Positions 4,949 through 43,743 of a DNA stretch of 44,532 nt are shown here, in pieces. Both the position numbers and the translations under genes were made by a program. The stretch lies in sequence record OX457022; one strand, written 5' to 3'. Numbering within the stretch: the first letter of the stretch is position 1; the number at the start of each line of letters is the position of its first letter. The notes below the pieces were generated by a model. That model was not told the origin of the DNA. It saw nothing but the letters and a program-made list of their open reading frames with translations, and searched no databases. The DNA is from Escherichia phage vB_EcoP-CC1.

Positions 4949-6499
4949 ATGATGCAAGACACCGACCTTGAGTATGGTGGAAAGCGGTCGAAGATACCTA
5001 AGTTGTGGGAGAAGCTATCTACTAAGCGCAGTCCTTTCATGGACAGGGCAAAGCACTATGCGAGGTTGACTTTGCCATACCTCATGAATGAGGAGGGAGA
5101 CAACAATACTTCTCAGAATGGGTGGCAAGGTGTAGGTGCACAGGCCACTAACCACTTAGCTAACAAGTTAGCACAAGTTCTCTTCCCTGCTCAACGCTCT
5201 TTCTTCCGAGTTGACTTGACAGCAAAAGGGGAGAAGATATTAAACAACAGAGGTCTTAAGAAGACCAAATTAGCTACGCTGTTTGCTCAAGTAGAGACTG
5301 CTGCTATGAAGCAACTAGAGCAGCGGCAGTTCCGCCCAGCGGTGGTAGAATGCTTCAAGCATTTGATTGTTGCAGGTAACTGTATGCTGTACAAGCCAAG
5401 CAAGGGTGCAATCAGTGCGATACCTATGCATCACTATGTAGTTAATCGAGATGCTAATGGGGAACTGCTGGATATTATCTTACTACAAGAGAAGGCGCTA
5501 AAGACATTCGACCCTGCAACTCGCATGGCTATTGAAGTAGGCATGAAAGGTAAGAAGTGCAAAGACAGTGATAATGTAAAACTCTACACACACGCCAAGT
5601 ATGAGGGTGAAGGTTTTTGGGAATTAAATCAATCAGCAGATGATATTCCTATTGGTAAATCTAGCAGAATCAAGGCTGATAAACTCCCATTCATCCCTCT
5701 TACTTGGAAGAGGTCTTATGGAGAAGATTGGGGTCGCCCTCTTGCAGAGGATTATTCTGGAGATTTATTCGTAATCCAATTCCTGTCTGAAGCGGTTGCG
5801 CGTGGCGCTGCTTTGATGGCCGACATTAAATACCTGATTCGTCCAGGTGCTCAGACAGATGTAGACCACTTTGTTAACTCAGGAACAGGCGAAGTAATCA
5901 CTGGTGTGGAAGAGGACATCCATATCGTACAACTAGGCAAGTATGCAGACCTAACACCAATAAGTGCTGTACTAGAGGTTTATACCAGACGCATCGGCGT
6001 AGTCTTTATGATGGAGACTATGACACGACGAGATGCAGAACGTGTAACTGCTGTAGAGATACAGCGAGATGCTCTTGAGATTGAGCAGAACATGGGTGGC
6101 GTATACTCACTCTTTGCTACGACTATGCAGACACCCGTGGCTATGTGGGGTTTGCTTGATGCCGGAGACTCTTTCACCAGTGACCTAGTAGATCCTGTTA
6201 TCATCACAGGTATTGAAGCATTAGGTCGCATGGCAGAGTTGGATAAGCTGGCTAACTTCGCTCAGTATATGGCATTACCTATGAGTTGGCCTGAGCCAGT
6301 ACAGGCAGCGGTGAACTGGCCTGATTATATGGATTGGGTTCGTGGTCAGATCTCCGCTGAACTTCCATTCCTAAAATCAGAAGAGCAGATGAAGAAAGAG
6401 CAAGCACAGATGGCACAAGCACAGCAAGAGCAGATGCTTAATGAAGGAGTAGCTAAAGCTGTACCTGGTGTCATTCAACAAGAACTTAAGGAGGCGTAA
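4949..6499 (+). CDS. Portal (head-tail connector) protein
   Basis: At 516 aa it sits immediately upstream of the scaffold and capsid genes, as in the T7/SP6 order. Confidence 0.85.
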   Translation: MMQDTDLEYGGKRSKIPKLWEKLSTKRSPFMDRAKHYARLTLPYLMNEEGDNNTSQNGWQGVGAQATNHLANKLAQVLFPAQRSFFRVDLTAKGEKILNNRGLKKTKLATLFAQVETAAMKQLEQRQFRPAVVECFKHLIVAGNCMLYKPSKGAISAIPMHHYVVNRDANGELLDIILLQEKALKTFDPATRMAIEVGMKGKKCKDSDNVKLYTHAKYEGEGFWELNQSADDIPIGKSSRIKADKLPFIPLTWKRSYGEDWGRPLAEDYSGDLFVIQFLSEAVARGAALMADIKYLIRPGAQTDVDHFVNSGTGEVITGVEEDIHIVQLGKYADLTPISAVLEVYTRRIGVVFMMETMTRRDAERVTAVEIQRDALEIEQNMGGVYSLFATTMQTPVAMWGLLDAGDSFTSDLVDPVIITGIEALGRMAELDKLANFAQYMALPMSWPEPVQAAVNWPDYMDWVRGQISAELPFLKSEEQMKKEQAQMAQAQQEQMLNEGVAKAVPGVIQQELKEA

Positions 6500-8740: not shown

Positions 8741-9481
8741 ATGCCTTTAATTCAAAATACAAGTGATGTTGGACGTATCATGGCTGAGGCTTCCTTCAAT
8801 ATCATTGATAGCAAACTGGAAGCAGTTAACCTGTGTATGCGAGCTATCGGTCGTGAGGGTGTGGATTCCCTTGACTCTGGCGACTTAGATGCTGAAGATG
8901 CTAATAAGATTATTGATATTGTCTCACAACGTTTCCAGTACAATAAAGGTGGTGGTTGGTGGTTTAACAGGGAACCTAATTGGCTGCTTAAACCTGATAC
9001 CAACGGCGAAGTGAATATGCCAAACAATTGCCTTGCGGTACTCCAGTGTTACGCCCTAGGTGAACGTAAAGTACCTATGACTATACGAGCAGGCAAGTTG
9101 TATTCTGTTTGGAATCACACTTTCGACATGTCAAAGTATGTGAATCAGGATGGGCGTATTAGGTTGACTCTGGTAACATTACTACCTTTTGAGCATCTAC
9201 CTGCAAGTGTTATGCAAGCTATTGCCTATCAAGCTGCCGTAGAGTTTATTGTGTCTAAGGATGCTGATAAGACTAAGTTACAAGCACACCAGCAGATCGC
9301 AGCACAGCTTATGATTGATGTTCAGTCAGAGCAGTCTTCTCAGAAGAGACTCAATATGCTTGTACATAACCCTACTCAGCGCAACTTCGGAATCATGGCA
9401 GGTGGCTCACAGAATGTACCAGCATTCTCCTATTCCCCTTATGATACTTACCCTGTAAGGCCGTGGGAGGTTGATCGCTGA
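8741..9481 (+). CDS. Tail tubular protein A (gp11-like)
   Basis: Called from synteny after the capsid gene, the SD AGGAGGG and the size. Confidence 0.75.
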   Translation: MPLIQNTSDVGRIMAEASFNIIDSKLEAVNLCMRAIGREGVDSLDSGDLDAEDANKIIDIVSQRFQYNKGGGWWFNREPNWLLKPDTNGEVNMPNNCLAVLQCYALGERKVPMTIRAGKLYSVWNHTFDMSKYVNQDGRIRLTLVTLLPFEHLPASVMQAIAYQAAVEFIVSKDADKTKLQAHQQIAAQLMIDVQSEQSSQKRLNMLVHNPTQRNFGIMAGGSQNVPAFSYSPYDTYPVRPWEVDR

Positions 9482-11886
9482 TGGAAGTGCAAGGCTCATT
9501 AGGTCGTCAGATTCAAGGTATTAGCCAACAACCAGCAGCAGTGCGGTTAGATGGGCAATGTACCGATATGGTTAATATGGTTCCAGATGTAGTCAACGGT
9601 ACACAATCTCGCATGGGGAGTGTGCACATTGCAAAGCTACTGGACTCCGGCAGTGACAATATGGCAACACATCACTATCGAAGAGGCGATGGTGATGAGG
9701 AATACTTCTTTGTTTTAAAGAAAGGTAGTTTGCCGGAAATCTTTGACAAGCAAGGCCGTAGGTGTAATGTGACAACAAGGGATGCTCCTTTAGATTATCT
9801 AAAAGAAGTAGTAAATCCACGAGAAGATGTACAGTTTATGACTATTGCAGATGTCACATTTATGCTGAATAGGAGAAAGGTCGTAAAGACAAGGTCTGCA
9901 CGGTCGCCTAAGATCGGTAACACTGCCTTAGTTTTTAGTGCCTATGGTCAGTATGGGACTACATATCGTATAAAGATTAACAACGTTACAGCGGCAGAGT
10001 ACAGAACTGCAAATGGTGGAGAGGCTAGTGACATTAGTACAATCAGAACCGAAAGGATAGCAAGGGAGTTGTATGAGAAACTGCTCGCTTGGGAAGGTGC
10101 TGCCGATTATAAATTCAGTCGTGATGAGAATGTCATAACCATTAGTACTGTGGACGGTTCTACTGATTTTACTGTATCTACTAATGATGGTGCGAAAGGG
10201 CAAGACTTAGTTGCAATTAAATATAAGGTAACGTCTACTGACCTCCTACCTTCTAGAGCACCCGCTGGTTACAAAGTTCAAGTCTGGCCTACAGGAAGTA
10301 AACCAGAGTCCAGATATTGGCTAGAAGCAGAGAAGAAAGAAGGCAGCTTGGTTACTTGGAAAGAAACCATTGCAGCAGATGTCCTTCTAGGTTTTGATAA
10401 AGCCACAATGCCTTACCTTATAGAGCGCACAGATATTATAGATGGGATAGCGCAGTTCACTATAAGGCAGGGAGATTGGGAAGACCGCAAGGTTGGTGAT
10501 GACCTCACTAACCCCATGCCGTCCTTCATTGATAAAGAGAACCCACAAACTATAGGCGGCATGTTTATGGTACAGAATAGGCTCTGTGTAACAGCAGGAG
10601 AGGCTGTCATAGCTACTAGGACTTCTGCGTTCTTTGACTTCTTTCGCTACTCAGCAGTGGCTAGCGTTGCTACTGACCCGTTTGATGTGTTCTCAGATGC
10701 AAGTGAAGTCTATCAGCTAAAACATGCAGTTACTCTGGATGGTGCTACGGTCTTATTTGCTAACAGGTCGCAGTTTACAATCCCTGGAGATAAAGTACTG
10801 GAGAAGTCAAACATCGTATTACAACCAGCGACCACCTTCGAAGTTGACAACAGGGTTCCTCCTGTGGCAACGGGTGAGTCTGTGATGTTTGCTACTAGTG
10901 AGGGTGCTTACTCTGGTATCCGTGAGTTTTACACAGATTCATATAGCGATACGAAGAAGGCACAGGCTATTACTAGTCATGTGAATAAGTTGATACAAGG
11001 TAACATCACTCACATGGTTGCCAGTACCAATATTAACAGGCTACTCGTGATTACAGACAAAGACCCCAATATCGTCTATTGTTATGATTGGTTGTGGCAA
11101 GGGACAGACCGTGTACAATCCGCATGGCATAAGTGGGTGTGGCCTAAAAATACTCTGATACGATCTATGTTCTACTCTTCGGAGGCTTTGTATCTTCTAG
11201 TAGAAAGAGGCAATACGGGTGTCTACTTAGAGGTGATGGATATGGGGGATGCCCTCACATACGGATTGGTTGATAGGATAAGATTAGATAGGCAGGCAGA
11301 GCTTATCTTTACTTATGACTCTTACAACTCCCAGTGGGTATCAAATCCTTTACCTTGGATACCAACAGACACTACATTGCTAGATTGTGTACTGACCACA
11401 GGGTGGCCTGCTTATATTGGTGGGGCTTTTGGTTTCGAATATGATGCAGGTAGCAACACACTACGGACTACATTTGATTTAGCTGATGAGCAATCTAACG
11501 CTATCGTAGTGGTCGGACAGTTGTATCAACAGGAGTTTGAACCTACGCAAGTGGTTATCAGGGATAATCAAGATAGAGTCTCCTATATAGATGTACCTGT
11601 GGTTGGGTTAGTGCACCTTAATCTGGATAAATACCCTGACTTTGAAGTGCACATTAAGAATTTGAAAAGTGGAAAGGTGCGAAAAGCACTAGCCTCTAAT
11701 CGCAAAGGTGGTGCACTGAATAACATCGTGGGATATGTTAAACCTGAAGAGGGTTCTTTTAAGTTCCCCCTTAGGTCGCTAAGTACCGACACGGTTTATA
11801 GGATAGTTGTCAAATCACCTCACACTTTTCAACTAAGAGATATTGAGTGGGAGGGTTCGTATAACCCAACTAAGAGGAGGGTATAA
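9481..11886 (+). CDS. Tail tubular protein B (gp12-like)
   Basis: It is 801 aa, comparable to T7 gp12, and is coupled by a TGATG overlap. Confidence 0.8.
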   Translation: MEVQGSLGRQIQGISQQPAAVRLDGQCTDMVNMVPDVVNGTQSRMGSVHIAKLLDSGSDNMATHHYRRGDGDEEYFFVLKKGSLPEIFDKQGRRCNVTTRDAPLDYLKEVVNPREDVQFMTIADVTFMLNRRKVVKTRSARSPKIGNTALVFSAYGQYGTTYRIKINNVTAAEYRTANGGEASDISTIRTERIARELYEKLLAWEGAADYKFSRDENVITISTVDGSTDFTVSTNDGAKGQDLVAIKYKVTSTDLLPSRAPAGYKVQVWPTGSKPESRYWLEAEKKEGSLVTWKETIAADVLLGFDKATMPYLIERTDIIDGIAQFTIRQGDWEDRKVGDDLTNPMPSFIDKENPQTIGGMFMVQNRLCVTAGEAVIATRTSAFFDFFRYSAVASVATDPFDVFSDASEVYQLKHAVTLDGATVLFANRSQFTIPGDKVLEKSNIVLQPATTFEVDNRVPPVATGESVMFATSEGAYSGIREFYTDSYSDTKKAQAITSHVNKLIQGNITHMVASTNINRLLVITDKDPNIVYCYDWLWQGTDRVQSAWHKWVWPKNTLIRSMFYSSEALYLLVERGNTGVYLEVMDMGDALTYGLVDRIRLDRQAELIFTYDSYNSQWVSNPLPWIPTDTTLLDCVLTTGWPAYIGGAFGFEYDAGSNTLRTTFDLADEQSNAIVVVGQLYQQEFEPTQVVIRDNQDRVSYIDVPVVGLVHLNLDKYPDFEVHIKNLKSGKVRKALASNRKGGALNNIVGYVKPEEGSFKFPLRSLSTDTVYRIVVKSPHTFQLRDIEWEGSYNPTKRRV

Positions 11887-12611
11887 TGGCGATAATGGCG
11901 ACAGTAGGGTCAAGCCTAGCCAGCATGTTCTCCAGTAGTGCAGGTGCTGCGGCTGCTAGTAGTGCTGCTGGTAGTGCCGCCGCTGGAAGTGGTGGTGTAC
12001 TTGGCTCTATCGGAAGTTTCTTAGGTGGAAGCTCTGCTGGCTTTTCTAATGCAGGTTTGTTGTCTGCTGGACTACAAGGCTTAAACTTACTAGGCGGTCT
12101 ATTCGGTGGACGAGATACCGCTAAGGCTATGCAGAAAGCACAAGAAGAAGAATGGAGACAAAGGCTAGAAGCCACACGTGAAGCCTATTCTTCTGTGGCA
12201 GATGCAGAGCGGGCTGCTGCAAAGCAATATCATTCTGACTTCCTTAGTAATCAAATTTCACTGATGCAGCAACGAGCGCAAGTTGCAGTAATGGCAGGCG
12301 CTACTGGAACAGGTGGTAGCTCCATCACATCCATGCTCAATGATTTGACGGCAGAAGGCGGTCGCAATCAGTCAACCATTATAGATAATTATGAGAATCA
12401 GCAAATCAACTTTGCCAACCAGTTGAAGTCTATTCAACGCAGTGGACAGATGCAGATGCGAACGTTTGACAAACCTTCCGCTTTGGGTACTTTGGTGAAA
12501 GGAATACCAAGCATTGCATCTTCCTATGTCACCGGAAGTAAAGCAGGTATGGCACTTGGCAAGGCTATCACTGAGTCTCGTACTTATTCATCAGGAACTA
12601 GAGGAGTTTAA
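11886..12611 (+). CDS. Internal virion protein A (gp14-position)
   Basis: It has a Gly/Ala/Ser-rich hydrophobic N-terminus and sits in the gp14 position. Confidence 0.65.
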   Translation: MAIMATVGSSLASMFSSSAGAAAASSAAGSAAAGSGGVLGSIGSFLGGSSAGFSNAGLLSAGLQGLNLLGGLFGGRDTAKAMQKAQEEEWRQRLEATREAYSSVADAERAAAKQYHSDFLSNQISLMQQRAQVAVMAGATGTGGSSITSMLNDLTAEGGRNQSTIIDNYENQQINFANQLKSIQRSGQMQMRTFDKPSALGTLVKGIPSIASSYVTGSKAGMALGKAITESRTYSSGTRGV

Positions 12612-15554
12612 ATGGCAATTGAACGTCAAGCTGTACAAGGACTAGAAAGAGTACAGTCAAGGGGCGCGCCAACACCTATGTCTTTCACACCACGACAAGT
12701 GAGTATCTCAGGGGGCGCGGATGCCTCCGGTAGTAGATTTTTGGAAGACTTAGTAAACGCTGCAAGTAGTGTGGCTGATGTCACTACTGCTATCCTTAAT
12801 CAGCAAGTAGAAGACGATAAGGTTCGCCAGATGGATAGGGCTTTATCTGGCATGATGCCTTCTGAGGATGCTACGGTAGGTGGTGCTCGTGCGCATATGC
12901 TGGTTAGTTTACAAAATGATGTAATCGCACAGACAACTGCGCTACAAGTAGAAGCACAGCGATTTCAAGGTAGTGACGAGGATTGGGAAAACTATGTAGT
13001 TCAATCTCGTAATGAGGTACAAAATAGGTTATGGCAAAGTTATCCAGAGCTTCGTGGTGACAAAGATTCTATGAGACTTGTCACTAACGCGTTCATGGAG
13101 CAGCAACCTAGAATTACTGCAACTAGAGCAGAGGCTAAACTTCGTCAAGAAGAAGAAGCACGAATGCAATCTATGCAGTCTCGTATTATCATGGCTACAC
13201 GGGACGTAGCGCCAGATGCCACTGGTGCAGCACTCATCCAGTTACAAAAAGAAGCACTGGCGATGGGTCTTAGTAAACCTGAGTTTGATCAGATGGTTGC
13301 TAAGATTGCATCTGACAGAGCGGCAGTAGGAGATGATAGTCTTATTCAGGGAACCAAAGCACTGGTGGATGATAAGGGTGTCTCTTTGTATGACCGTGTT
13401 GGTGCTTTGCAAACTGGAGAGATTCAAGCTAACAGAGCTTGGGCTGCGCAGAATCAGGTTGCCCTCTTTGAGAAGAAGGATGCAGCTATAAAGGCATTCG
13501 ATGCAGGGCAACTTACTCGTGAAGAGTTACTTCAGGTGATGCAGAATCACAATGAATTGACTGGTGGTACTGCTTGGTCTGATAGCGAGATCAAGGCTAT
13601 CTTCGATAGGCAAGCTAAGGCTAATGCAGAGAAAGCAAAGCTCGAAGATCTTATTGCACGAGGTGAATCTGGGTCGCCTTTAGGTTTACAGGATATTAGT
13701 AAGGATGACAGAAAATCCTATGCTGAAGCCTTAGTTAGTACCTACACTAAGTTGGCAGAAGATGAAATTGCCCGTACTGGTGCAACGGGAGAACAGGCTG
13801 AAGCTATTCGCGGTAGGTATGAGCAGATGCGTTATCTTAAATTAGGGCAACAACTTATTGAAGACCCAATCATTAAGGAAAGATATTCGTCGCTTATGCA
13901 ATTATCCTCTGCCAACCTTAAAGATATGAATGTTGAGCCTGAAGCATTACAGACCATCATGCGAGCGCGGGACTCTATTCCAGAGGATGCACGTCGTGCT
14001 GTCATGGGAGACAAAGAGTATGCCTTTGTAGAGAACTACGACCTAGCAACTCGCATGGGGTATAACGCAGGTCAAGCTATTGAGTTTGCACAGAATGCCT
14101 CTCGTGGAGAGAAGCTACAAGGTTCTGTACTTAAAGAACTGAATGATGATGTAGATGGAGTTGTAAGTGATGTGGCAGGAGGTAGTTGGCTTACTCGTGG
14201 CGATAATATGAGTGAGATGGGTCGTGACATTATGATGGAGGAGGCAAGTACAATTGCGAGAGCAATGAAGGTTGCAGGTCATAATAATGACACGATTAAA
14301 CGTCATCTTAAATCCTATTTGACGAGCCAGTATACACAGTTATCAGAGGGCTTCTTCACCCAAGGTGTTCTGGTGAAAGGTGATGTACGAACATTAGGTG
14401 ACACTATAGGAGTAAACCAGAATGACCTTCCTATGGCGCTACGTCAATATATGGATAACAACAAGCAAGCACTTCTTGATGCATCAGGTGGCTTAGAAGA
14501 GGGTGATTTGTATTTTGATGTAGATGCGCAGCGGGGACTCTTTACCATACGTGCAGGGTCTGGTCGTGTACCTGTTACGCAGGCAATGCCTTTGTCTGAA
14601 ATCAAAGGGCAGTCCTTGCTTAAGCAAAGATATGATGCAGAGGTTAAAGCCCGTGATGAGGGGCGTAAGAATTTTGAAGCACAGCAAATGAGGATGTGGG
14701 GCGCAGGTGGCTACCAAGCACAACCACCTGCAAAGACTACAGCCAAAACTGTAGGCTCCCGTGGGATTGCTGACTTCTTAATGTCACCTGCCTTTGCATC
14801 AGGCGAGAATCTACCAGCAAACTTTGAGTTTGGATATAAGAGGAATAATATGGACTTCTACAATTATGTAGCCAAGATGGAGAATAATGCCAATGTGGGC
14901 TTTGACCGAGTAGCTGGTGTTTATACACCATACAAAGATGCACATGGTCAATCTGTCGGGTACGGTCACTTCCTTACTACTGAAGAGAAGAAGAACGGAT
15001 ACATTATGATTGGTACAGAGAAAGTGCCATTCACTCCGGGACAATCTCAATTAACACCAGAACGAGCCATGCGCCTTCTACAGCAAGACTTGAAGAGTCA
15101 TGTGCCAAACACTTCAGGGTGGGCTGTTCCATTCGAAGAGATGCACCCAGGTGTTCAGCGTGGCCTTATGGACTTGTCCTATAATTTAGGCAAAGGAGGT
15201 ATCCAGAATGCACCTAAAGCCTATGTTGCGTTTAAGGCTGGCAAGTTTACTGATGGATTTATTGAGATGTTATCTACTGCATCTACTGAAGGTAAGCGTA
15301 GTACTGGGTTGTTGGTTCGTAGAGCAGAAGCATACAACCTTGCACAGAGTGGAGGTGCTATTCCTAAGATTAGTGAAGTAGAGACACGAGCCGATGGGTC
15401 TATGTATGTTAAGTTTGCAGGACAGATGTCAGAGGCTTTCGTAAATAAATCAATCTACAATCAGATTGGTAAGGATGGATGGCTGCAAGTGTACCCTCCA
15501 AAACAAGGTGTACTTGCACCTAACACCAAGATTGGTAGAATCAAACTAAGCTAG
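12612..15554 (+). CDS. Internal virion protein B with a C-terminal lysozyme-like (GH24-type) domain
   Basis: It occupies the gp15 position. The C-terminus carries MENNANVGFDRVAGVYTPYKDAHGQSVGYGHF, which fits the T4-lysozyme-like E...D...T/GYGH pattern. Confidence 0.75.
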   Translation: MAIERQAVQGLERVQSRGAPTPMSFTPRQVSISGGADASGSRFLEDLVNAASSVADVTTAILNQQVEDDKVRQMDRALSGMMPSEDATVGGARAHMLVSLQNDVIAQTTALQVEAQRFQGSDEDWENYVVQSRNEVQNRLWQSYPELRGDKDSMRLVTNAFMEQQPRITATRAEAKLRQEEEARMQSMQSRIIMATRDVAPDATGAALIQLQKEALAMGLSKPEFDQMVAKIASDRAAVGDDSLIQGTKALVDDKGVSLYDRVGALQTGEIQANRAWAAQNQVALFEKKDAAIKAFDAGQLTREELLQVMQNHNELTGGTAWSDSEIKAIFDRQAKANAEKAKLEDLIARGESGSPLGLQDISKDDRKSYAEALVSTYTKLAEDEIARTGATGEQAEAIRGRYEQMRYLKLGQQLIEDPIIKERYSSLMQLSSANLKDMNVEPEALQTIMRARDSIPEDARRAVMGDKEYAFVENYDLATRMGYNAGQAIEFAQNASRGEKLQGSVLKELNDDVDGVVSDVAGGSWLTRGDNMSEMGRDIMMEEASTIARAMKVAGHNNDTIKRHLKSYLTSQYTQLSEGFFTQGVLVKGDVRTLGDTIGVNQNDLPMALRQYMDNNKQALLDASGGLEEGDLYFDVDAQRGLFTIRAGSGRVPVTQAMPLSEIKGQSLLKQRYDAEVKARDEGRKNFEAQQMRMWGAGGYQAQPPAKTTAKTVGSRGIADFLMSPAFASGENLPANFEFGYKRNNMDFYNYVAKMENNANVGFDRVAGVYTPYKDAHGQSVGYGHFLTTEEKKNGYIMIGTEKVPFTPGQSQLTPERAMRLLQQDLKSHVPNTSGWAVPFEEMHPGVQRGLMDLSYNLGKGGIQNAPKAYVAFKAGKFTDGFIEMLSTASTEGKRSTGLLVRRAEAYNLAQSGGAIPKISEVETRADGSMYVKFAGQMSEAFVNKSIYNQIGKDGWLQVYPPKQGVLAPNTKIGRIKLS

Positions 15555-15557
15555 TGG

Positions 15558-15601
15558 TATACTCAAGGTTTGTCTCACATGTGAGACATGCCTTTATGAA
15601 T
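15558..15601 (+). promoter_or_regulatory. RNase III-like hairpin with a palindrome apex (TATACTCAAGGT-tTGTCTCACATGTGAGACAt-GCCTTTATGAAT)
   Basis: It is intergenic. The flanks are identical to those of the hairpin at 41961-41996 and resemble the T7 R0.3 segment CTCAAGGGT...GCCCTTTATGAT (recalled). Confidence 0.55.
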
Positions 15602-15621
15602 GACACTGACTAGGAGGTAAC

Positions 15622-24881: not shown

Positions 24882-24904
24882 ATTTACTGGACACTATAGG
24901 AGGA
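24882..24904 (+). promoter_or_regulatory. Phage RNAP promoter (ATTTACTGGACACTATAGGAGGA)
   Basis: It is a consensus match that begins 2 nt after the terminase stop. Confidence 0.85.
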
Positions 24905-25037
24905 AGACCAAGAGAGTAAAAGGAATATTATAGGATAATATAGGATTACCTAGGTTATATAGGTGTACCTTAGTATGGGTGTACTCCTGTACACCTATTC
25001 TTACTTGCTATTTACTTATACGTATAAGGAGTATTAG

Positions 25038-29724: not shown

Positions 29725-29794
29725 CGTTTCGTTCACTCCGCTTGCGCTACGTTCACTCGCTCACGTGTACCTTAGGTTGTTCCTTGATGGATAG

Positions 29795-29897
29795 CTTAGG
29801 TTAGCCTTAGTGGACTACCTTAGTTATAACCTTAGTGCTTATCTTAGTAATAGCTTAGTAATGTACCTTAGTAAGTCTTAGTGTCTTCTCTTAGTGA
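29795..29897 (+). repeat. Dense array of 9 CTTAG(T/G) short repeats spaced 10-13 bp
   Basis: Read directly. About 10 more copies are scattered across 29526-30216 and one lies at 30835. It is analogous to the T7 SRL/SRR arrays next to the terminal repeat. Confidence 0.8.
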
Positions 29898-30042
29898 TTG
29901 CACATGCAAGCATGTAAGATGCCATTAGGTCGCGGTCGGTAGACCGCTAAAGAAAGAGAATAGTAATAAGATGCAGTAGGAGGAACACCAGAAACCTAGC
30001 CAACCTAACCTATCCTAGCTCTGTATCTATTGCTTTTCCTTA

Positions 30043-30058
30043 GTCTAACATGTGAGAC
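30043..30058. repeat. Palindrome family copy, 1 mismatch (GTCTAACATGTGAGAC)
   Basis: Read directly. It is intergenic, 35 bp upstream of the -35 element of the first early promoter. Confidence 0.7.
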
Positions 30059-30820: not shown

Positions 30821-30913
30821 GATGGTAGCTTCTTAGTCTGGATAGGTTAAACCTAGGGGATTCTCTTGAGTCTCCTATAATGTAACCTAACTAACTAAAT
30901 GAGGATTAATAAC

Positions 30914-31462: not shown

Positions 31463-31639
31463 ATGAAATACATACTGATTGCTATGTTTTCTGGCTTCAT
31501 TGGCTATGCTGGTGCTTCTTATGACAACTACAGAAGTAAGCAATTGGCTGCTGAAAAGTGGGATAAAACCTATTTTGCTTGTATGAAACAAGGTAATTTG
31601 ATGCAAGATTGCATACTTAAAGCGCACAGCGAAGAGTGA
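31463..31639 (+). CDS. 58-aa protein with an N-terminal hydrophobic segment
   Basis: The ORF is under 60 aa and has a weak SD. The sequence begins MKYILIAMFSGFIGYAGA.... Confidence 0.35.
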   Translation: MKYILIAMFSGFIGYAGASYDNYRSKQLAAEKWDKTYFACMKQGNLMQDCILKAHSEE

Positions 31640-31703
31640 TGAGCCTATAGCCTACTTAAGTGGGCTATGTGAACACCATTCATTAACTCAAAAGGTGACT
31701 ATT

Positions 31704-32627
31704 ATGACTACTGAAAACACCCTCCTGTCTGTTCGTGAAGCTGCAACCGCTGAGATCAAGCAACACTTAGACAATATCGGCACTTCTTACATCAAAGTTG
31801 GCGCTTGTCTTAATGAGTTACGCGGTGACTTTGAAGGTCAAAAAGACTTTTTGGCTTATGTAGAATCAGAATTTGGAATCAAGAAAGCACAATGTTACAA
31901 GCTGATGAGTGTAGCCCGTGTCTTTGAAGGCGATGATCGCTTTAAAGGCGTGGCGATGCGTGTAATGCTGGCACTTGTTCCTTTCGCTGATGAAAATATC
32001 ATCATGGAGAAAGCCGCAGAACTTGCCGCAGCGGGCAAGCTGGACACTAATGCCGTAAATGCCCTGATTGATCCTAAGAAAGAGACAAAGGCCGAGACGG
32101 TACAATCTAAGGCTGAGGCGGTAAAACCGCAGGAGAATGCGACTGAGGCCGCAGAAACTATGCAAGGACATGCGACCTTTGAGGATTTCATCTTAGAGAA
32201 GGCGAAAGAGGAATTACAAAGTGTGCCGCCAGTAAGTGAGTCGGGTAACGACGAATCCGCACCGTGGGAAGATGAAAGCAAGCCGGAAGCGCCAAAGGCC
32301 GCGCCACTGGATAACACGGCTAACACGGAGAACGCCGCTATGTCTGGCCTACTGGCACAAATTAAGGCACTGACTGAGCAATTACAGGCAGCTAACGACC
32401 GCATCGCCGCCCTAACCAGTGCACGGGAAGGTAAGAAAGCGGCTGCGCCTATGCTTCCGCAGTTTAAATCCTCTTGCTTCTACGCTCGCTTAGGCTTGAG
32501 CGCCGAGGAAGCAACGAAGAAAACAGCAGTGAATAAGGCACGCCGTGAACTGGTTAAACTAGGGTATGGTGAAGGTCATGAGGCATGGCCTTTGATCTCT
32601 GAGGCAGTAGAAGAATTAACTAAGTAA
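31704..32627 (+). CDS. Early protein with a DUF3102-like N-terminal domain
   Basis: AAGGTG precedes the ATG at 31704. IKQHLDNIGTSYIKVGACLNELRGDFEGQKDFLAYVESEFGIKKAQCYKLMSVARVF fits the remembered DUF3102 pattern. The middle is acidic and Ala-rich, and a coiled coil follows. Confidence 0.6.
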   Translation: MTTENTLLSVREAATAEIKQHLDNIGTSYIKVGACLNELRGDFEGQKDFLAYVESEFGIKKAQCYKLMSVARVFEGDDRFKGVAMRVMLALVPFADENIIMEKAAELAAAGKLDTNAVNALIDPKKETKAETVQSKAEAVKPQENATEAAETMQGHATFEDFILEKAKEELQSVPPVSESGNDESAPWEDESKPEAPKAAPLDNTANTENAAMSGLLAQIKALTEQLQAANDRIAALTSAREGKKAAAPMLPQFKSSCFYARLGLSAEEATKKTAVNKARRELVKLGYGEGHEAWPLISEAVEELTK

Positions 32628-32690
32628 CCTTATCGGTGGCATCTTCTTAGGTGTCACCTATTAAGGTTTCTTTCACTAGGAGTAAACAAG

Positions 32691-35318
32691 ATGCAAGATC
32701 TACACGCTATTCAGCTTCAGCTTGAGGAAGAAATGTTTAACGGCGGTATTCGTCGCTTTGAAGCAGACCAACAACGCCAGATTGCATCAGGTAATGAATC
32801 CGATACGGCATGGAATCGTCGCCTGTTGTCGGAGCTTATCGCACCTATGGCGGAAGGTATTCAGGCTTATAAGGAAGCCTACGAAGGAAAGAAAGGACGC
32901 GCACCGCGTGCACTGGCCTTCATTAACTGCGTAGAGAACGAAGTGGCAGCATATATCACGATGAAGATCGTAATGGATATGCTTAACACAGATGTAACCT
33001 TGCAAGCCATAGCAATGAATGTAGCTGATCGCATCGAAGATCAAGTACGCTTCAGCAAGCTGGAAGGCCACGCCGCCAAATACTTTGAAAAAGTTAAGAA
33101 GTCACTCAAGGCAAGTAAGACTAAATCATATCGCCATGCGCACAACGTAGCGGTAGTGGCTGAGAAGTCAGTAGCTGACCGTGACACTGATTTCTCCCGC
33201 TGGGAGGCGTGGCCTAAAGATACCTTACTGCAAATCGGTATGACCTTGCTAGAAATACTGGAGAATAGCGTATTCTTCAATGGTCAACCTGTCTTCCTCC
33301 GCACCTTGCGCACTAATGGTGGCAAGCATGGTGTTTACTACTTACAGACCAGTGAGCACGTAGGGGAGTGGGTTACAGCATTTAAAGAACATGTAGCGCA
33401 ACTTAGTCCGGCCTATGCACCTTGCGTCATTCCTCCGCGCCCTTGGGTGTCCCCTTTTAATGGTGGGTTTCATACTGAGAAGGTGGCAAGTCGCATCCGT
33501 TTGGTAAAAGGCAACCGTGAGCACGTCCGTAAGCTGACCAAAAAGCAAATGCCAGCAGTTTATAAGGCTGTTAATGCTTTACAGGCCACTAAGTGGCAAG
33601 TTAACAAAGAAGTTTTGCAGGTAGTAGAAGACGTTATCCGTCTCGACCTTGGTTATGGTGTACCTTCCTTTAAACCACTCATCGACCGCGAGAACAAGCC
33701 GGCTAACCCAGTGCCGTTAGAATTTCAACACTTGCGAGGCCGCGAACTGAAGGAAATGTTAACGCCGGAACAATGGCAAGCCTTCATCAACTGGAAAGGT
33801 GAATGCACCAAGCTGTATACCGCTGAGACTAAGCGCGGAAGTAAGTCGGCGGCAACCGTTCGCATGGTAGGACAAGCGCGCAAATACAGCCAGTTTGATG
33901 CGATTTATTTCGTGTATGCACTGGATAGCCGCTCACGCGTTTATGCGCAATCTAGCACACTCTCACCGCAATCAAACGACCTAGGCAAGGCGTTACTGCG
34001 TTTTACCGAAGGGCAGCCGCTAAATAGCTCTGAGGCGCTTAAATGGTTTTTGGTGAACGGGGCGAATAACTGGGGTTGGGATAAGAAGACTTTCGACGTG
34101 CGCACCGCTAACGTACTGGACGGCGAGTTTCAAGATATGTGCCGCGACATTGCAGCGGATCCTCTGACCTTTACTCAATGGGTAAATGCCGATTCACCTT
34201 ATGGATTCCTTGCATGGTGCTTTGAGTATGCTCGTTATTTGGATGCACTGGATGAAGGAACACAAGATCAGTTTGTGACGCATTTACCTGTTCATCAAGA
34301 TGGTAGCTGTTCTGGCATCCAGCACTACAGTGCTATGCTACGCGACGAAGTGGGTGCGAAGGCGGTAAACCTTAAACCATCCGACTCGCCTCAAGATATT
34401 TATGGAGCGGTTGCGCAGGTTGTTATCCAGAAGAACTACGCCTACATGAATGCAGATGATACAGAAACTTTCACATCTGGAAGCGTAACACTTACAGGTG
34501 CAGAACTGCGCAGCATGGCTAACGCGTGGGATATGATTGGGATCACTCGCGGCTTAACCAAAAAGCCAGTAATGACCTTGCCATACGGCTCCACCCGCTT
34601 AACCTGCCGTGAATCGGTGATTGATTATATCGTTGATTTGGAAGAAAAAGAGGCGCAGAGAGCTGTTGCCGAAGGGCGGACGGCTAATCCTGTGCACCCT
34701 TTTGATAATGACCGTAAAGACTATCTGACACCTGGTGCAGCTTACAACTATATGACCGCTTTAATTTGGCCTTCTATCTCTGAGGTTGTTAAAGCGCCTA
34801 TAGTGGCGATGAAAATGATTCGCCAGCTTGCACGATTCGCAGCTAAAAGAAACGAAGGGTTAGAGTACACCTTACCCACTGGTTTCATCTTGCAGCAAAA
34901 GATAATGGCTACCGACATGCTACGCGTATCCACTTGCTTGATGGGTGAAATCAAGATGAGTCTACAGATTGAGACTGATGTAGTGGATGAAACGGCAATG
35001 ATGGGCGCTGCCGCTCCTAACTTTGTTCACGGTCATGATGCGAGTCACCTTATTCTGACTGTATGTGACCTAGTTGACAAAGGTATTACATCAATTGCAG
35101 TTATTCATGACTCTTTCGGAACTCATGCAGGCCGTACATCAGATCTTCGTGATAGCTTAAGGGCAGAAATGGTTAAGATGTATCAAGGGCGTAACGCCTT
35201 GCAGCAATTGCTGGATGAGCATGAAGAACGTTGGTTGGTGGACACTGGCATTCAAGTGCCGGAACAAGGGGAGTTTAACCTTGAAGAGATATTAGTTTCT
35301 GACTATTGTTTTGCATAA
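32691..35318 (+). CDS. Single-subunit DNA-directed RNA polymerase (SP6-type)
   Basis: [32 protein letters not shown]... and most of the length closely follow the recalled SP6 RNAP. The C-terminus ends ...YCFA. Confidence 0.98.
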
Positions 35319-35325
35319 TATTGAT

Positions 35326-35357
35326 AGGCCATTCCTTAGGGAGTGGCCTTTTCTTTT
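35326..35357 (+). terminator. Terminator after the RNAP gene (early terminator analogue)
   Basis: The AGGCCA...TGGCCT hairpin is followed by TTTTCTTTT. Confidence 0.6.
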
Positions 35358-35392
35358 ACCTATTACCTGTAACATTTAATTAACATAACCGT

Positions 35393-35408
35393 GTCTCACG
35401 CGTGAGAC
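35393..35408. repeat. Palindrome family copy (GTCTCACGCGTGAGAC)
   Basis: It is a perfect dyad located 2 bp upstream of the promoter at 35411. Confidence 0.9.
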
Positions 35409-35410
35409 TT

Positions 35411-35433
35411 ATTTACCGGACACTATAGGATAA
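35411..35433 (+). promoter_or_regulatory. Phage RNAP promoter, ACCGG class (ATTTACCGGACACTATAGGATAA)
   Basis: It matches the core consensus and is the first of a tandem pair after the RNAP gene. Confidence 0.8.
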
Positions 35434-35573
35434 CCGTCGGAGACGGAAAGAGAAGGGAAGATAAGGATATAAAGGAAGTAATAGGTATTAAAGGTTGTAT
35501 AGGTTTACCTAGGAATACTTATTACCTTCTTCCTTCCTCTTCTTACTACCTAGAGGAAGGGCAGACCTAGGTT

Positions 35574-35589
35574 GTCTCACATGTGAGAC
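35574..35589. repeat. Palindrome family copy (GTCTCACATGTGAGAC)
   Basis: It is a perfect dyad located 4 bp upstream of the promoter at 35594. Confidence 0.9.
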
Positions 35590-35593
35590 TTCG

Positions 35594-35616
35594 TATTTAC
35601 CGGACAGTATAGATAA
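35594..35616 (+). promoter_or_regulatory. Phage RNAP promoter variant (ATTTACCGGACAGTATAGATAAG)
   Basis: It matches the consensus except for a C-to-G change at -5. It is the second of the tandem pair. Confidence 0.6.
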
Positions 35617-35642
35617 GACTAACTTACTTTGGAGATTTAACC

Positions 35643-35771
35643 ATGCGTAACTTTGAGAAGATGACCCGTAAAGCTAACCGTTTTGACATGGAAGAAGGGC
35701 AGACGAGAGGCAAGAAGCTGAATAAACCTGTCCGTGACCGTGCATCTAAACGAGCAGCGTGGGAGTCCTAA
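35643..35771 (+). CDS. T7 gp1.1-like 42-aa basic protein
   Basis: GGAG precedes the ATG. MRNFEKMTRKANRF...GKKLNKPVRDRASKRAAWES compares with recalled T7 gp1.1 MRNFEKMTKRSNRN...GRKLNKTKRDRSHKRSWEGQ. It is not in the track because it is under 60 aa. Confidence 0.6.
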   Translation: MRNFEKMTRKANRFDMEEGQTRGKKLNKPVRDRASKRAAWES

Positions 35772-35774
35772 GTT

Positions 35775-37763
35775 ATGGCTATTATTCAGAACGTACCGTG
35801 CCCTGCCTGCCAAAAGAATGGACACGATAAATCCGGCAACCATCTTATGATATTTGAGGATGGCGCTGGTTACTGTAACCGTGGTCATTTCCATGATAAT
35901 GGCAAACCTTATTACCATAAGCCAGAGGGCGGCATCGAGATAACCGAATTGCCCATTACTGGCAATATCAAATACACACCTTCTCAATTCAAAGAAATGG
36001 AGAAGGAAGGGAAGATAAGCGACCCTAAGCTACGCGCCATCGCACTTGGTGGTATGCGTATGAAAGACCGTTGGGAGGTCATGAATGAGCAAGAAAGGGC
36101 AGACCAAGAAGCAGAGTGGAAACTTGATGTTGAATGGTTCCTCACGCTTAAGCGTAAGAACCTTGTTTCCCGACACATTCGCGGCGACATTTGCGCATTG
36201 TATGATGTACGTGTCGGACACGATGAAGAGGGTAGAGTCTCGCGGCATTACTATCCACGCTTCGAGAAAGGTGAGCTAGTAGGAGCTAAGTGTCGCACAT
36301 TACCTAAAGACTTTAAGTTTGGTCATTTAGGTAAACTCTTTGGTATGCAAGATCTTTTCGGGATGAATACTTTGTCTCACGTGTTAGACAAGGGAAGACG
36401 AAAGGATTGCTTGCTTATTGTTGGTGGGGAACTGGATGCGCTAGCAGCGCAGCAGATGCTCCTTGATTCTGCCAAGGGTACTAAGTGGGAAGGTCAACCT
36501 TACCATGTATGGTCTGTTAACAAAGGGGAGTCTTGCCTTGAAGAGATTGTGCAGAACCGTGAACACATCGCCCAATTCAAGAAGATTATTTGGGGCTTCG
36601 ATGGGGATGAGGTAGGGCAGAAGCAGAACCAGCAAGCGGCTCGCCTGTTCCCTGGCAAATCTTATATCCTTGAATACCCCTCTGGTTGCAAAGATGCCAA
36701 CAAGGCATTGATGGCTGGTAAAGCCAAAGAATTTGTGGATGCTTGGTTTAATGCAAAGTCATCTGATGAAGTCTTTGGTAGCCAGATTAAATCTATCGCA
36801 TCTCAAAGGGATAAGCTCAAGGCTGCACGTCCAGAACAAGGGCTGTCATGGCCTTGGCCTAAGCTAAACAAGGTAACACTGGGTATCCGTAAGAACCAGC
36901 TTATCATTATAGGTGCAGGCTCTGGTGTTGGTAAGACAGAGTTCCTCCGTGAAGTGGTAAAGCATCTCATCGAAGAACACGGTGAATCTGTAGGTATCAT
37001 TTCTACAGAAGACCCGATGGTCAAAGTGTCCCGTGCTTTTATCGGTAAGTGGATTGATAAGCGTATTGAACTACCGCCAACCAATGACCCGAAAGAAGAT
37101 GGCTACCGTGAGGTGTTCGACTATACAGAGGAAGAGGCTAATGCTGCCATTGATTATGTAGCTGATACAGGGAAGCTGTTTGTAGCTGACCTAGAGGGTG
37201 ACTATTCGATGGAGAAGGTAGAGCAAACTTGCCTAGAGTTTGAGGCTATGGGTATTTCTAATATCATCATTGATAACTTAACGGGGATTAAATTAGATGA
37301 GCGTGCTTTTGGTGGGAAGGTTGGTGCACTTGATGAATGCGTCAAACGAATTGGTACTATCAAAGACCGACATGCGGTTACGATTTTCCTTGTCTCTCAC
37401 CTTACACGCCCTCCGGCAAACCGTACCCAACACGAAGAAGGTGGCGAAGTTATCCTTTCTGACTTCCGAGGCTCAGGCGCTATCGGATTCTGGGCATCTT
37501 ACGCCTTGGGGATTGAGCGTAATACAAGAGCTGAAACGCTTGATGAACGGACTACCACGTACATCTCATGTGTCAAAGACCGCGACCAAGGTATCTACAC
37601 TGGAACCAAGGTCATGCTTAAGGGTGACATTCAAACCGGACGTTTAATGGAACCACAAGCCCGTACTAAGTCATTTGATACAGGTGAAGCAAGGCAACAA
37701 GAAGTACCTGATTTACCGGACACTATAGAAGAGACAACCTTTGACGATGAACAGGAGTTTTGA
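35775..37763 (+). CDS. Primase-helicase (T7 gp4-like)
   Basis: A zinc ribbon (CPACQKNGH...CNRGH) and a TOPRIM region are present. The Walker A motif is GAGSGVGKT and the acidic C-terminus reads ...FDDEQEF. Confidence 0.92.
   Translation: MAIIQNVPCPACQKNGHDKSGNHLMIFEDGAGYCNRGHFHDNGKPYYHKPEGGIEITELPITGNIKYTPSQFKEMEKEGKISDPKLRAIALGGMRMKDRWEVMNEQERADQEAEWKLDVEWFLTLKRKNLVSRHIRGDICALYDVRVGHDEEGRVSRHYYPRFEKGELVGAKCRTLPKDFKFGHLGKLFGMQDLFGMNTLSHVLDKGRRKDCLLIVGGELDALAAQQMLLDSAKGTKWEGQPYHVWSVNKGESCLEEIVQNREHIAQFKKIIWGFDGDEVGQKQNQQAARLFPGKSYILEYPSGCKDANKALMAGKAKEFVDAWFNAKSSDEVFGSQIKSIASQRDKLKAARPEQGLSWPWPKLNKVTLGIRKNQLIIIGAGSGVGKTEFLREVVKHLIEEHGESVGIISTEDPMVKVSRAFIGKWIDKRIELPPTNDPKEDGYREVFDYTEEEANAAIDYVADTGKLFVADLEGDYSMEKVEQTCLEFEAMGISNIIIDNLTGIKLDERAFGGKVGALDECVKRIGTIKDRHAVTIFLVSHLTRPPANRTQHEEGGEVILSDFRGSGAIGFWASYALGIERNTRAETLDERTTTYISCVKDRDQGIYTGTKVMLKGDIQTGRLMEPQARTKSFDTGEARQQEVPDLPDTIEETTFDDEQEF
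36374..36389. repeat. Palindrome family copy, 1 mismatch, intragenic (GTCTCACGTGTTAGAC)
   Basis: Read directly inside the primase-helicase CDS, where it codes LSHVLD. Confidence 0.6.
37711..37733 (+). promoter_or_regulatory. Phage RNAP promoter, ACCGG class, inside the 3' end of primase-helicase (ATTTACCGGACACTATAGAAGAG)
   Basis: It is a full consensus match. Confidence 0.75.
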
Positions 37764-37924
37764 TGGAAATTATTAAACCATTATTAAATATCGGCGTTGA
37801 CATCCTATTCATGCTTATGCTAGCAAACTATGCTGCACGATATGGATTCAAGCCAGCTGTGAAACTTATCGTTGCATCTGGTTTTCTTATGTCAATGTTC
37901 TTTATTGTAACACACCTTATCTAG
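37763..37924 (+). CDS. 53-aa two-TM membrane protein
   Basis: It is coupled by a TGATG overlap, with AGGAG upstream. The sequence is MEIIKPLLNIGVDILFMLMLANYAARYGFKPAVKLIVASGFLMSMFFIVTHLI. Confidence 0.5.
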   Translation: MEIIKPLLNIGVDILFMLMLANYAARYGFKPAVKLIVASGFLMSMFFIVTHLI

Positions 37925-37935
37925 TGTATTTATCA

Positions 37936-37963
37936 GGGCTTGTCTCACATGTGAGACAGGCTC
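37936..37963 (+). promoter_or_regulatory. Extended hairpin with a palindrome apex (GGGCTT-GTCTCACATGTGAGAC-AGGCTC)
   Basis: The core is at 37942-37957. The flanks pair with two G-U wobbles on the + strand RNA only. Confidence 0.6.
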
Positions 37964-37996
37964 TTATTAAGTACATTAAATAACTGGAGATTGATT

Positions 37997-38939: not shown

Positions 38940-39137
38940 ATGCAAAATAAACATAGCCTTAAGATGTTTGATGGTCACGAAGACCTGCAAGCACAAATTA
39001 CCAACCAAGCCTTCCTGTTTGCACAGTTAACTATGGCTGAAGCAAAGAAGAACAGCCTTACTCGTGAGCAGATTATCAAGGAAGGTAGCCGTGGTGCTAC
39101 TCGTCGTACCAAGAACCACAGAAGTGGTGCTCGCTAG
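38940..39137 (+). CDS. Hypothetical 65-aa protein with a basic C-terminus
   Basis: It is a track ORF with a weak SD. Confidence 0.4.
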   Translation: MQNKHSLKMFDGHEDLQAQITNQAFLFAQLTMAEAKKNSLTREQIIKEGSRGATRRTKNHRSGAR

Positions 39138-39147
39138 TCGATAAGTC

Positions 39148-39177
39148 AAGGGTTGTCTCACGTGTGAGACAGCCTTT
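39148..39177 (+). promoter_or_regulatory. Extended hairpin with a palindrome apex (AAGGGTT-GTCTCACGTGTGAGAC-AGCCTTT)
   Basis: The core is at 39155-39170. The flanks pair with two G-U wobbles and are followed by CATCAT. Confidence 0.6.
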
Positions 39178-39201
39178 CATCATATTGATTGGAGGTGCAT
39201 T

Positions 39202-41842: not shown

Positions 41843-41960
41843 TGGATAGATTAGATATTGTTTGCTTGTTCTTTACCTTCTTTCTTGTCTTTCTTATGCT
41901 TGCTTGTTATGGAAGTATTCAGGTAAATATACCTGATGAAGAGGAAGGATACGACTGAGT

Positions 41961-41996
41961 TATACTCAAGGTCACTTACGAGTGGCCTTTATGAAT
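41961..41996 (+). promoter_or_regulatory. RNase III-like hairpin (TATACTCAAGGT-CACTTACGAGTG-GCCTTTATGAAT)
   Basis: The upper stem AAGGTCAC...GTGGCCTT resembles the recalled T7 R1.1/R0.3 stems. The flanks are identical to those at 15558-15601. Confidence 0.55.
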
Positions 41997-42026
41997 AACT
42001 TACTCCTACTTATTTTGTCTAACATG

Positions 42027-42049
42027 ATTTACTGGACACTATAGAAGGA
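42027..42049 (+). promoter_or_regulatory. Phage RNAP promoter (ATTTACTGGACACTATAGAAGGA)
   Basis: It is a consensus match, directly preceded by the half palindrome GTCTAACATG (42017-42026). Confidence 0.85.
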
Positions 42050-42113
42050 AAGCCTAGGTAATCTAGGTTTATAAGGTAGTATAGGTAATTAAGTAAATAT
42101 AGGAGATATAAAT

Positions 42114-43705: not shown

Positions 43706-43720
43706 AAATCGGTGTCCAGT

Positions 43721-43743
43721 ATTTACTGGACACTATAGAAGAG
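43721..43743 (+). promoter_or_regulatory. Phage RNAP promoter (ATTTACTGGACACTATAGAAGAG)
   Basis: It is a consensus match. Positions -14 to -5 are mirrored upstream (GTGTCCAGTA at 43712-43721). Confidence 0.85.

Follow-up and report, generated by a model that had tools for sequence, protein, structure and literature searches.

The region described here lies in the genome of Escherichia phage vB_EcoP-CC1 (sequence record OX457022), at positions 35,319 to 35,642 of a 44,532-nucleotide stretch that was analyzed at its full length and is called the window below; all positions are those of the window. It is the interval between the gene for the phage single-subunit RNA polymerase (RNAP) and the gene for gp8, a homologue of the T7 gene 1.1 product, and the primase/helicase gene follows downstream. 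No open reading frame (ORF) of at least 30 aa was found in the interval in an ORF scan. In order, the interval holds a predicted intrinsic terminator, a conserved non-coding block, a 16-bp palindrome, a phage promoter (P1), a leader with several predicted hairpins, a second copy of the palindrome, and a variant promoter (P2) (Table 1). A preliminary description, made from the letters alone, had listed these parts and had likened the whole to the primary replication origin of T7; every element that it listed was found where it had been placed.

The 1-kb stretch around the region is 100% identical to that of Escherichia phage vB_EcoP-CC2, 90-97% identical to those of many Vectrevirus (K1E/K1-5-like) phages, and ca. 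70% identical to those of Zindervirus (SP6) and Klebsiella Molineuxvirinae; the order of parts is kept in these three genera. The order of RNAP gene, two tandem phage promoters and Phage_1_1 gene is also that of T7, in which phi1.1A is located at 5848, phi1.1B at 5923 and gene 1.1 at 6007. Because the 42-aa gp8 matches the Pfam family Phage_1_1, both the T7 synteny and the gp1.1-like label that had been proposed for the downstream gene are confirmed. In a Pfam search of ten small early and middle proteins, Phage_1_1 and ocr were the only families found, and no DNA-binding domain was detected. Rfam was searched with the whole window at gathering thresholds, and no family matched; at permissive E-values, positions 35250-35800 gave sub-threshold matches only, mostly to hairpins resembling microRNA precursors.

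Table 1. Features of the region, its flanking genes, and matches in the window to a covariance model of T7 RNase III sites
Feature	Position	Strand	Evidence and details
Phage single-subunit RNAP gene, 875 aa (upstream boundary)	32691-35318	+	ORF; annotation in identical and related records
Predicted intrinsic terminator, ending early (host RNAP) transcription	35326-35357	+	Stem, T run, compensatory stem variants
Non-coding block ACCTATTACCTGTAACATTTAATTAACATAACCGT, terminator to first palindrome	35358-35392	+	Alignment of 19 relatives
Palindrome copy 1, GTCTCACGCGTGAGAC, 6-bp hairpin with CRYG loop, 2 nt upstream of P1	35393-35408	+	
Promoter P1, ATTTACCGGACACTATAG, predicted +1 = G at 35428	35411-35428	+	18/18 consensus match; in all relatives
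5'-proximal leader hairpin CCGUC-GGA-GACGG, +7 to +19 of P1 transcript	35434-35446	+	Compensatory changes
Purine-rich, A+T-rich TAGG/AAGG-repeat leader, ending in CCTAGG; 5' arm and apex of hairpin I	35447-35513	+	
Hairpin I, 17 bp (35472-35476/35527-35531 and 35478-35489/35514-35525)	35472-35531	+	RNAalifold, 17 Vectrevirus sequences
Hairpin II, CCUUCCUCU ... AGAGGAAGG, 9 bp	35532-35560	+	Consensus structure
Palindrome copy 2, GTCTCACATGTGAGAC, 5 nt upstream of P2, within predicted P1 transcript	35574-35589	+	
Variant promoter P2, ATTTACCGGACAGTATAG, C-to-G at -5, predicted +1 at 35612	35595-35612	+	17/18 consensus match; conserved in relatives
gp8, T7 gene 1.1 homologue, 42 aa	35643-35771	+	Pfam PF08200 Phage_1_1, E 9.5e-16, 58.4 bits
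Primase/helicase gene, predicted to be served by P1/P2	35775-37763	+	ORF and annotation; holds palindrome copy 36374-36389
R1.1-like hairpin after DNA polymerase gene	41954-42008	+	54.3 bits, E 5e-10
Hairpin with palindrome in upper stem	15551-15614	+	35.9 bits, E 8e-6
Hairpin with palindrome in upper stem	39134-39197	+	23.0 bits, E 0.008
Early intergenic site	31633-31686	+	21.0 bits, E 0.023
Hairpin with palindrome in upper stem	37921-37983	+	19.1 bits, E 0.062
Site just before RNAP gene, as T7 R1	32621-32678	+	17.8 bits, E 0.12
Site just before ocr gene, as T7 R0.3	30842-30894	+	16.9 bits, E 0.2

The terminator (stem AGGCCATTCC/GGAGTGGCCT at 35326-35349, then TTTCTTTT to 35357) is composed of a 10-bp stem with six G-C pairs, a 4-nt loop and a T run. 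At least five different stems occur among the relatives, and every one of them pairs. A G+C-rich hairpin, a T run and pairing kept by compensatory change, i.e. the features by which an intrinsic terminator is recognized, are all present. By eye, the stem (AGGCCAUUCC..GGAGUGGCCU) looks like the upper stem of the T7 RNase III site R1.1; its match to the covariance model introduced below is partial, confined to the upper stem, and not significant (13.9 bits, E about 1). The non-coding block that follows is nearly invariant across the Vectrevirus, Zindervirus and Klebsiella relatives, and its conservation exceeds that of the surrounding non-coding DNA.

Promoters were identified with the 18-nt SP6/K1E-type consensus ATTTAC(C/T)GGACACTATAG. 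This pattern occurs at 13 sites in the window, compared to 0.04 expected, and all are on the + strand. Judged by sequence, P1 and P2 are promoters of this type: they match the consensus, lie on the coding strand and stand upstream of genes. That the second of the two is a variant had been noted in the preliminary description. In SP6 and the Klebsiella relatives, too, the second promoter departs from the consensus, there at another position of the core (TATTG), so that its sub-consensus state is conserved in its own right. Only 30 nt separate P2 from the start codon of gp8. At another locus (43706-43738), the core of the 43721 promoter follows an inverted copy of itself (GGTGTCCAGT / ACTGGACACT); the two can form a 10-bp hairpin overlapping the promoter (z of -3.1 for the local fold), and a palindrome copy (43690) is found just before it.

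Among the predicted structures of the region, the best supported is the small CCGTC-GGA-GACGG hairpin near the 5' end of the P1 transcript. In 32 distinct relatives its central pair is G-C (25), A-T (4), C-G (2) or T-A (1); all four Watson-Crick pairs are thus represented, no relative lacks the pair, and the GGA loop does not vary. The remainder of the leader was folded as a consensus. Two 14-mers from its purine and pyrimidine runs had been quoted as complementary at 11 of 14 positions; a recount agrees, and the best stem between the runs, hairpin I, has 17 bp. With bulges it can be extended to ca. 30 bp; it thus offers the approximately two helical turns of double-stranded RNA in the sense transcript that characterize a T7-type RNase III site. 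Hairpin II, which draws on the second half of the pyrimidine run, is in competition with the pairing of that run to the upstream purine run; in the alternative minimum-free-energy fold, the upstream purine run pairs with the same pyrimidine run. The pyrimidine run, as had been described, is unusual, with 35504-35543 among the four most pyrimidine-rich 40-nt segments of the genome. A long imperfect hairpin is present in all five clades with differing arm sequences, and shuffling of the 3' arm only gave z values of -2.2 to -2.8. When the two strands were compared by folding, they behaved similarly, the + strand being only slightly richer in G.U pairs.

The first part of the P1 leader is a purine-rich module. 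The most purine-rich 60-nt segment of the genome is 35425-35484 (80%, vs. a mean of 54% with a standard deviation of 6.7%), in keeping with the purine-rich run of the preliminary description, and the CCTAGG that it had placed after this run is found at 35508-35513, with a second copy at 35566-35571. Repeats with a period of 9-10 were detected by Tandem Repeats Finder in 35440-35504 as well as in 24925-24946 and 42055-42103. Of the 13 promoters, those at 24882, 35411 (P1) and 42027 have the leaders richest in purine (0.69, 0.77 and 0.67, respectively), which contain 5-6 TAGG/AAGG motifs, vs. 0-2 in the leaders of the other ten. Against shuffled sequences, the P1 leader can be aligned locally to the leaders of 24882 (z about 7.6) and 42027 (z about 3.8); the third z value was about 2.5. 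Leaders of the same type thus lie at 24899-24965, after the terminase gene, and at 42044-42110, after the DNA polymerase gene, and SP6 carries the same leaders after its own DNA polymerase and terminase genes. The leader of 42027 lacks a downstream pyrimidine arm, so that the module has a role independent of such an arm. The T7 promoters connected with replication, phiOL and phi1.1B, likewise have leaders of 70-74% A+T that contain short CTTAAG-like repeats. The idea that the GGA/AGG repeats act as a CsrA sponge was rejected, as most of the repeats read AGGT and have no GGA core. The genome's most pyrimidine-rich 60-nt segment (41851-41910, 23% purine) lies between the stop codon of the DNA polymerase gene, which it directly follows, and the R1.1-like hairpin.

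The palindromes beside P1 and P2 had both been recognized in the preliminary description. Eight matches to the pattern GTCTCACNNGTGAGAC are found in the window, compared to 0.15 expected. R4596 and SP6 likewise carry eight palindromes, at matching genome positions and with clade-specific sequence (the SP6 type is GTCYAACRYGTTGGAC), and the clade-specific variants of copy 1 retain the symmetry. A single genome, that of SE29, mixes the types GTCTCAC..GTGAGAC, GTCCAAC..GTTGGAC and GTCTAAC..GTTAGAC. In a comparison of copies that are not independent of one another, positions 4/13 were T-A, C-G or T.G, the wobble T.G being present in eight copies and the opposite C.A in one; across the compared genomes, positions 5/12 were C-G or A-T. 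The near-restriction of the T.G wobble to the sense strand, together with the covarying halves, favors a hairpin in the sense RNA over recognition by a single DNA-binding protein.

The claim that the palindrome guards the promoters holds for P1 and P2 and fails as a general rule: it stands just upstream of only 3 of the 13 promoters, at a clade-dependent spacing of 2-15 nt, and five of the eight copies do not adjoin a promoter. One copy (36374-36389) lies inside the primase/helicase gene at about codon 200 (local fold z of -2.9) and follows the clade type, reading TCT CAC GTG TTA GAC here and TCT AAC GTG TTG GAC in SP6, with the encoded residues changing from S-H-V-L-D to S-N-V-L-D. Its second half falls short of GTGAGAC; that sequence would create a TGA stop. 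The clade type is followed as far as the reading frame permits. The predicted hairpin is best explained as a genome-wide RNA module and not as a part of an origin. A full-text search for the palindrome sequences returned nothing relevant among the searchable papers. Near the left end, CCTTAG/CCTAGG-type short-repeat arrays with a period of 24 or 12 (29768-29874 and 29993-30058) are followed by a degenerate copy at 30043, upstream of a sigma-70-like promoter (TTGACA-17-TACTAT). In the record of Salmonella phage SE29 (L036), identical promoter/palindrome contexts are found at 9093-9178 and 10093-10178, exactly 1000 bp apart, the result, perhaps, of a tandem duplication or of an assembly artefact in the record.

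Comparison with T7 was extended to its RNase III sites. The R sites were placed according to Dunn & Studier (1983), with R1.1 between phi1.1A and phi1.1B. Each site so placed folds as a hairpin, and a hairpin does fold between phi1.1A and phi1.1B. A covariance model was built from seven T7 RNase III sites, recovered the held-out site R6.5, and was used to search the window with filters off. The top seven matches are all on the + strand and all intergenic (Table 1). In three of them the palindromes 15572, 37942 and 39155 cap hairpins consisting of a lower stem, an internal loop and an upper stem (z of -1.1, -5.1 and -4.3, respectively), whose flanks vary by clade yet still pair. The flanks of these three, and those of the hairpin at 41957-41992, resemble T7 R sites (ACUCAAGG...CCUUUAUGA). 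Compared to the T7 sites R0.3, R0.5, R1, R1.1, R1.3, R4.7, R6.5 and R18.5, the sites 15572, 37942, 39155 and 41954-42008 have the same stem/loop/stem design; they share the CUCAAGG...CCUUUAUGA flanks, are intergenic and on the sense strand, and often stand beside a promoter. Unlike the T7 sites, in which the apex of the upper stem is variable, the apex here is one conserved 16-mer, and the copies at 35393 and 35574 have no such flanks. The site at 41954-42008 is nearly identical to T7 R1.1 in both design and sequence (ACUCAAGGUCACUUACGAGUGGCCUUUAUGA) and lies 19 nt upstream of the promoter at 42027; its SP6 counterpart is at 12222-12277. A 10-mer (ACCTTCTTCC) shared with the 3' flank of T7 R1.1 was not counted as homology (about 0.06 expected by chance). 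RNase III sites are commonly coupled to promoters in T7 (PMC6938266), and the palindrome-promoter pairs described here parallel that pairing. No mention of RNase III sites in SP6-group phages was found in the searchable papers.

Taken together, these observations suggest that the region is probably the SP6-group counterpart of the intergenic control region between genes 1 and 1.1 of T7, with a heavily structured leader. It also seems rather likely to be the point at which early transcription by the host RNAP gives way to middle transcription by the phage enzyme. Host RNAP would halt at the terminator, and newly made phage RNAP would start at P1 (35428) and at the weaker variant P2 (35612), both of which would transcribe gp8 and the primase/helicase gene. 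The P1 leader of ca. 185 nt would fold into the 5' hairpin, which may protect the 5' end, the long but imperfectly paired hairpin I, then hairpin II and, before P2, the hairpin of the palindrome. These hairpins would take the place of the T7 R1.1 hairpin, with a putative role in the processing or stability of the RNA. The region thus belongs to a known kind, the middle-promoter, processing and origin region of the T7 group, assembled from group-specific building blocks; it was judged to be an ordinary, if nicely structured, middle-gene control region, and prior descriptions of its elements may exist.

The likenesses to T7 are the position between the RNAP and Phage_1_1 genes, the tandem promoters with an RNA hairpin between them, and an A+T-rich short-repeat tract tied to the promoters. 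Unlike in T7, where TE follows gene 1.3, a host-type terminator immediately follows the RNAP gene; the promoters are separated by a purine/pyrimidine hairpin of ca. 60-95 nt rather than by one of the R1.1 type; a 16-bp palindrome precedes each promoter of the region; and the best sequence relative of R1.1 sits elsewhere, at 41954-42008. The preliminary description had held that the palindromes and the purine/pyrimidine arms go beyond what T7 explains. This does not stand, for T7 too has a hairpin between its two promoters, namely R1.1. Nor are these features specific to an origin, since the palindrome is found genome-wide and the purine arm also follows the promoters at 24882 and 42027.

Several observations weigh against this assignment. 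The long hairpin does not match the T7 RNase III-site model significantly: at E<=10 the model found no site in 35358-35642 with the T7-type arrangement of an upper stem, an asymmetric internal loop and a lower stem flanked by CUCAAGG...CCUUUAUGA. In the 17 Vectrevirus sequences the hairpin shows seven wobble cells, four broken cells and no compensatory change. An arm pairs with that of another clade no less well than with its cognate, the arm energies being no different, and in the alignment of relatives insertions in one arm are left uncompensated; much of the complementarity therefore reflects the composition of purines vs. pyrimidines, and there is little evidence that the pairing is under selection. 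The whole-region fold reached a z of only -1.7 on the + strand. The palindrome copies beside P1 and P2 are bare 6-bp hairpins without the extended stems of the RNase III-like sites, because of which RNase III alone would not explain their role. Positions C7/G10 of the palindrome are strictly conserved and cannot pair in a 2-nt loop, which also suits recognition of double-stranded DNA, and the copy at 30043, upstream of the first sigma-70-like promoter, may be poorly transcribed. Finally, neither an experiment nor a transcript map for this phage group was found in the searchable papers.

Other explanations of the same features were considered. Replication of T7 starts at phi1.1A/phi1.1B as primary origins, with secondary origins at phiOR and phi6.5 (PMC8373140). 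The region could likewise be the primary origin, at which purine-rich transcripts from P1 and P2 form stable RNA:DNA hybrids, open the A+T tract and are extended by the phage DNA polymerase; this is a real possibility that falls somewhat short of an even chance, as does its companion proposal that the inverted repeat and the palindromes are structural parts of the origin. The region has the position of the T7 primary origin, with two tandem phage promoters between the RNAP gene and the gene 1.1 homologue; its tract at 35460-35519 is 70% A+T (GC of 0.30); the P1 leader provides the purine maximum of the genome; and the TAGG module recurs after the terminase gene, where T7 has phiOR. The A+T-rich short-repeat leaders resemble those of the replication promoters phiOL and phiOR and of secondary origins, one of them likewise following the terminase gene; the repeats themselves differ, being TAGG/AAGG-based and purine-rich here and CTTAAG/TTTAAG-like in T7. 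However, the palindrome and the TAGG module occur at other loci too, and the A+T-rich tract lies between P1 and P2, whereas that of T7 follows the second promoter. The locus after the DNA polymerase gene (41954-42110) is equally T7-origin-like, with the T7 order of hairpin, promoter (42027) and A+T leader (71% A+T) and a far stronger R1.1 match; as far as a garbled passage in PMC4837284 goes, Dobbins et al. (2004) are credited with the suggestion of an origin near the SP6 DNA polymerase gene. Cumulative GC/AT skew rises monotonically and is uninformative, for it leaves even the known T7 origin unmarked and so cannot locate an origin here. The origin-like character claimed in the preliminary description thus survives as to position and not as to the palindromes and arms as origin-specific parts. 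By analogy with T7, it is plausible that transcription from P1 and P2 through the A+T-rich tract also primes or activates replication, the region being one of three candidate loci. A more elaborate version, which was thought unlikely, would make the TAGG/AAGG leaders after 35411, 24882 and 42027 a set of transcription-primed origins in SP6-group phages, the purine-rich transcript remaining stably hybridized to the DNA, as happens in ColE1 or at the mitochondrial conserved sequence block (CSB), and would at the same time make the 16-nt palindromic hairpin a phage-specific RNA signal, read by RNase III or another factor, that sets primer or mRNA ends near promoters.

Two further explanations place the function in the DNA. 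The 16-bp palindromes might be operators, with a dimeric phage or host protein controlling P1, P2, the 43721 promoter and the first early promoter. Perfect dyad symmetry extends through the center, including the C7/G10 that an RNA hairpin cannot pair; the same 16-mer is present 8 times; three of these copies precede a phage promoter by 2-15 nt, and one precedes a sigma-70-like promoter; and the intragenic copy is kept at the price of an amino-acid change between clades. A single operator sequence per genome would be expected, however, and SE29 combines differing types; the half-sites covary, with the T.G wobble almost confined to the sense orientation; three copies are embedded in long RNA hairpins with covarying flanks that match T7 RNase III sites; the spacing to the promoters varies with the clade; and the ten small proteins searched with Pfam offered no candidate DNA-binding domain. 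An operator function was therefore given little credence. A search for a trans-acting factor by phylogenetic profile was dropped since SE29 carries both palindrome types. Alternatively, the polypurine/polypyrimidine arms might adopt non-B DNA (an H-DNA triplex or a cruciform) and act as such. Uninterrupted runs of 17 purines (35443-35459) and 20 pyrimidines (35526-35545) and the presence of the inverted repeat in all clades would suit this idea; the arms form an interrupted inverted repeat rather than a mirror repeat, an apical spacer of ca. 24 nt and many mismatches disfavor cruciform extrusion, and the sense strand tolerates wobble-type substitutions, all of which make it very improbable.

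SP6/K1E-type phages are widely used therapeutically, and a standard RNA polymerase derives from SP6. If the assignment of the region as the SP6-group counterpart of the T7 gene 1/gene 1.1 control region is correct, the 16-nt hairpin, the 13-nt 5' hairpin and the TAGG leader would be elements available for engineering these phages, with the caution that the palindromes should not be treated as origin parts. It would also mean that SP6/K1E-type phages have kept the T7 logic of promoters and processing hairpins, and possibly that of transcription-activated origins, and have rebuilt it from different sequence modules.

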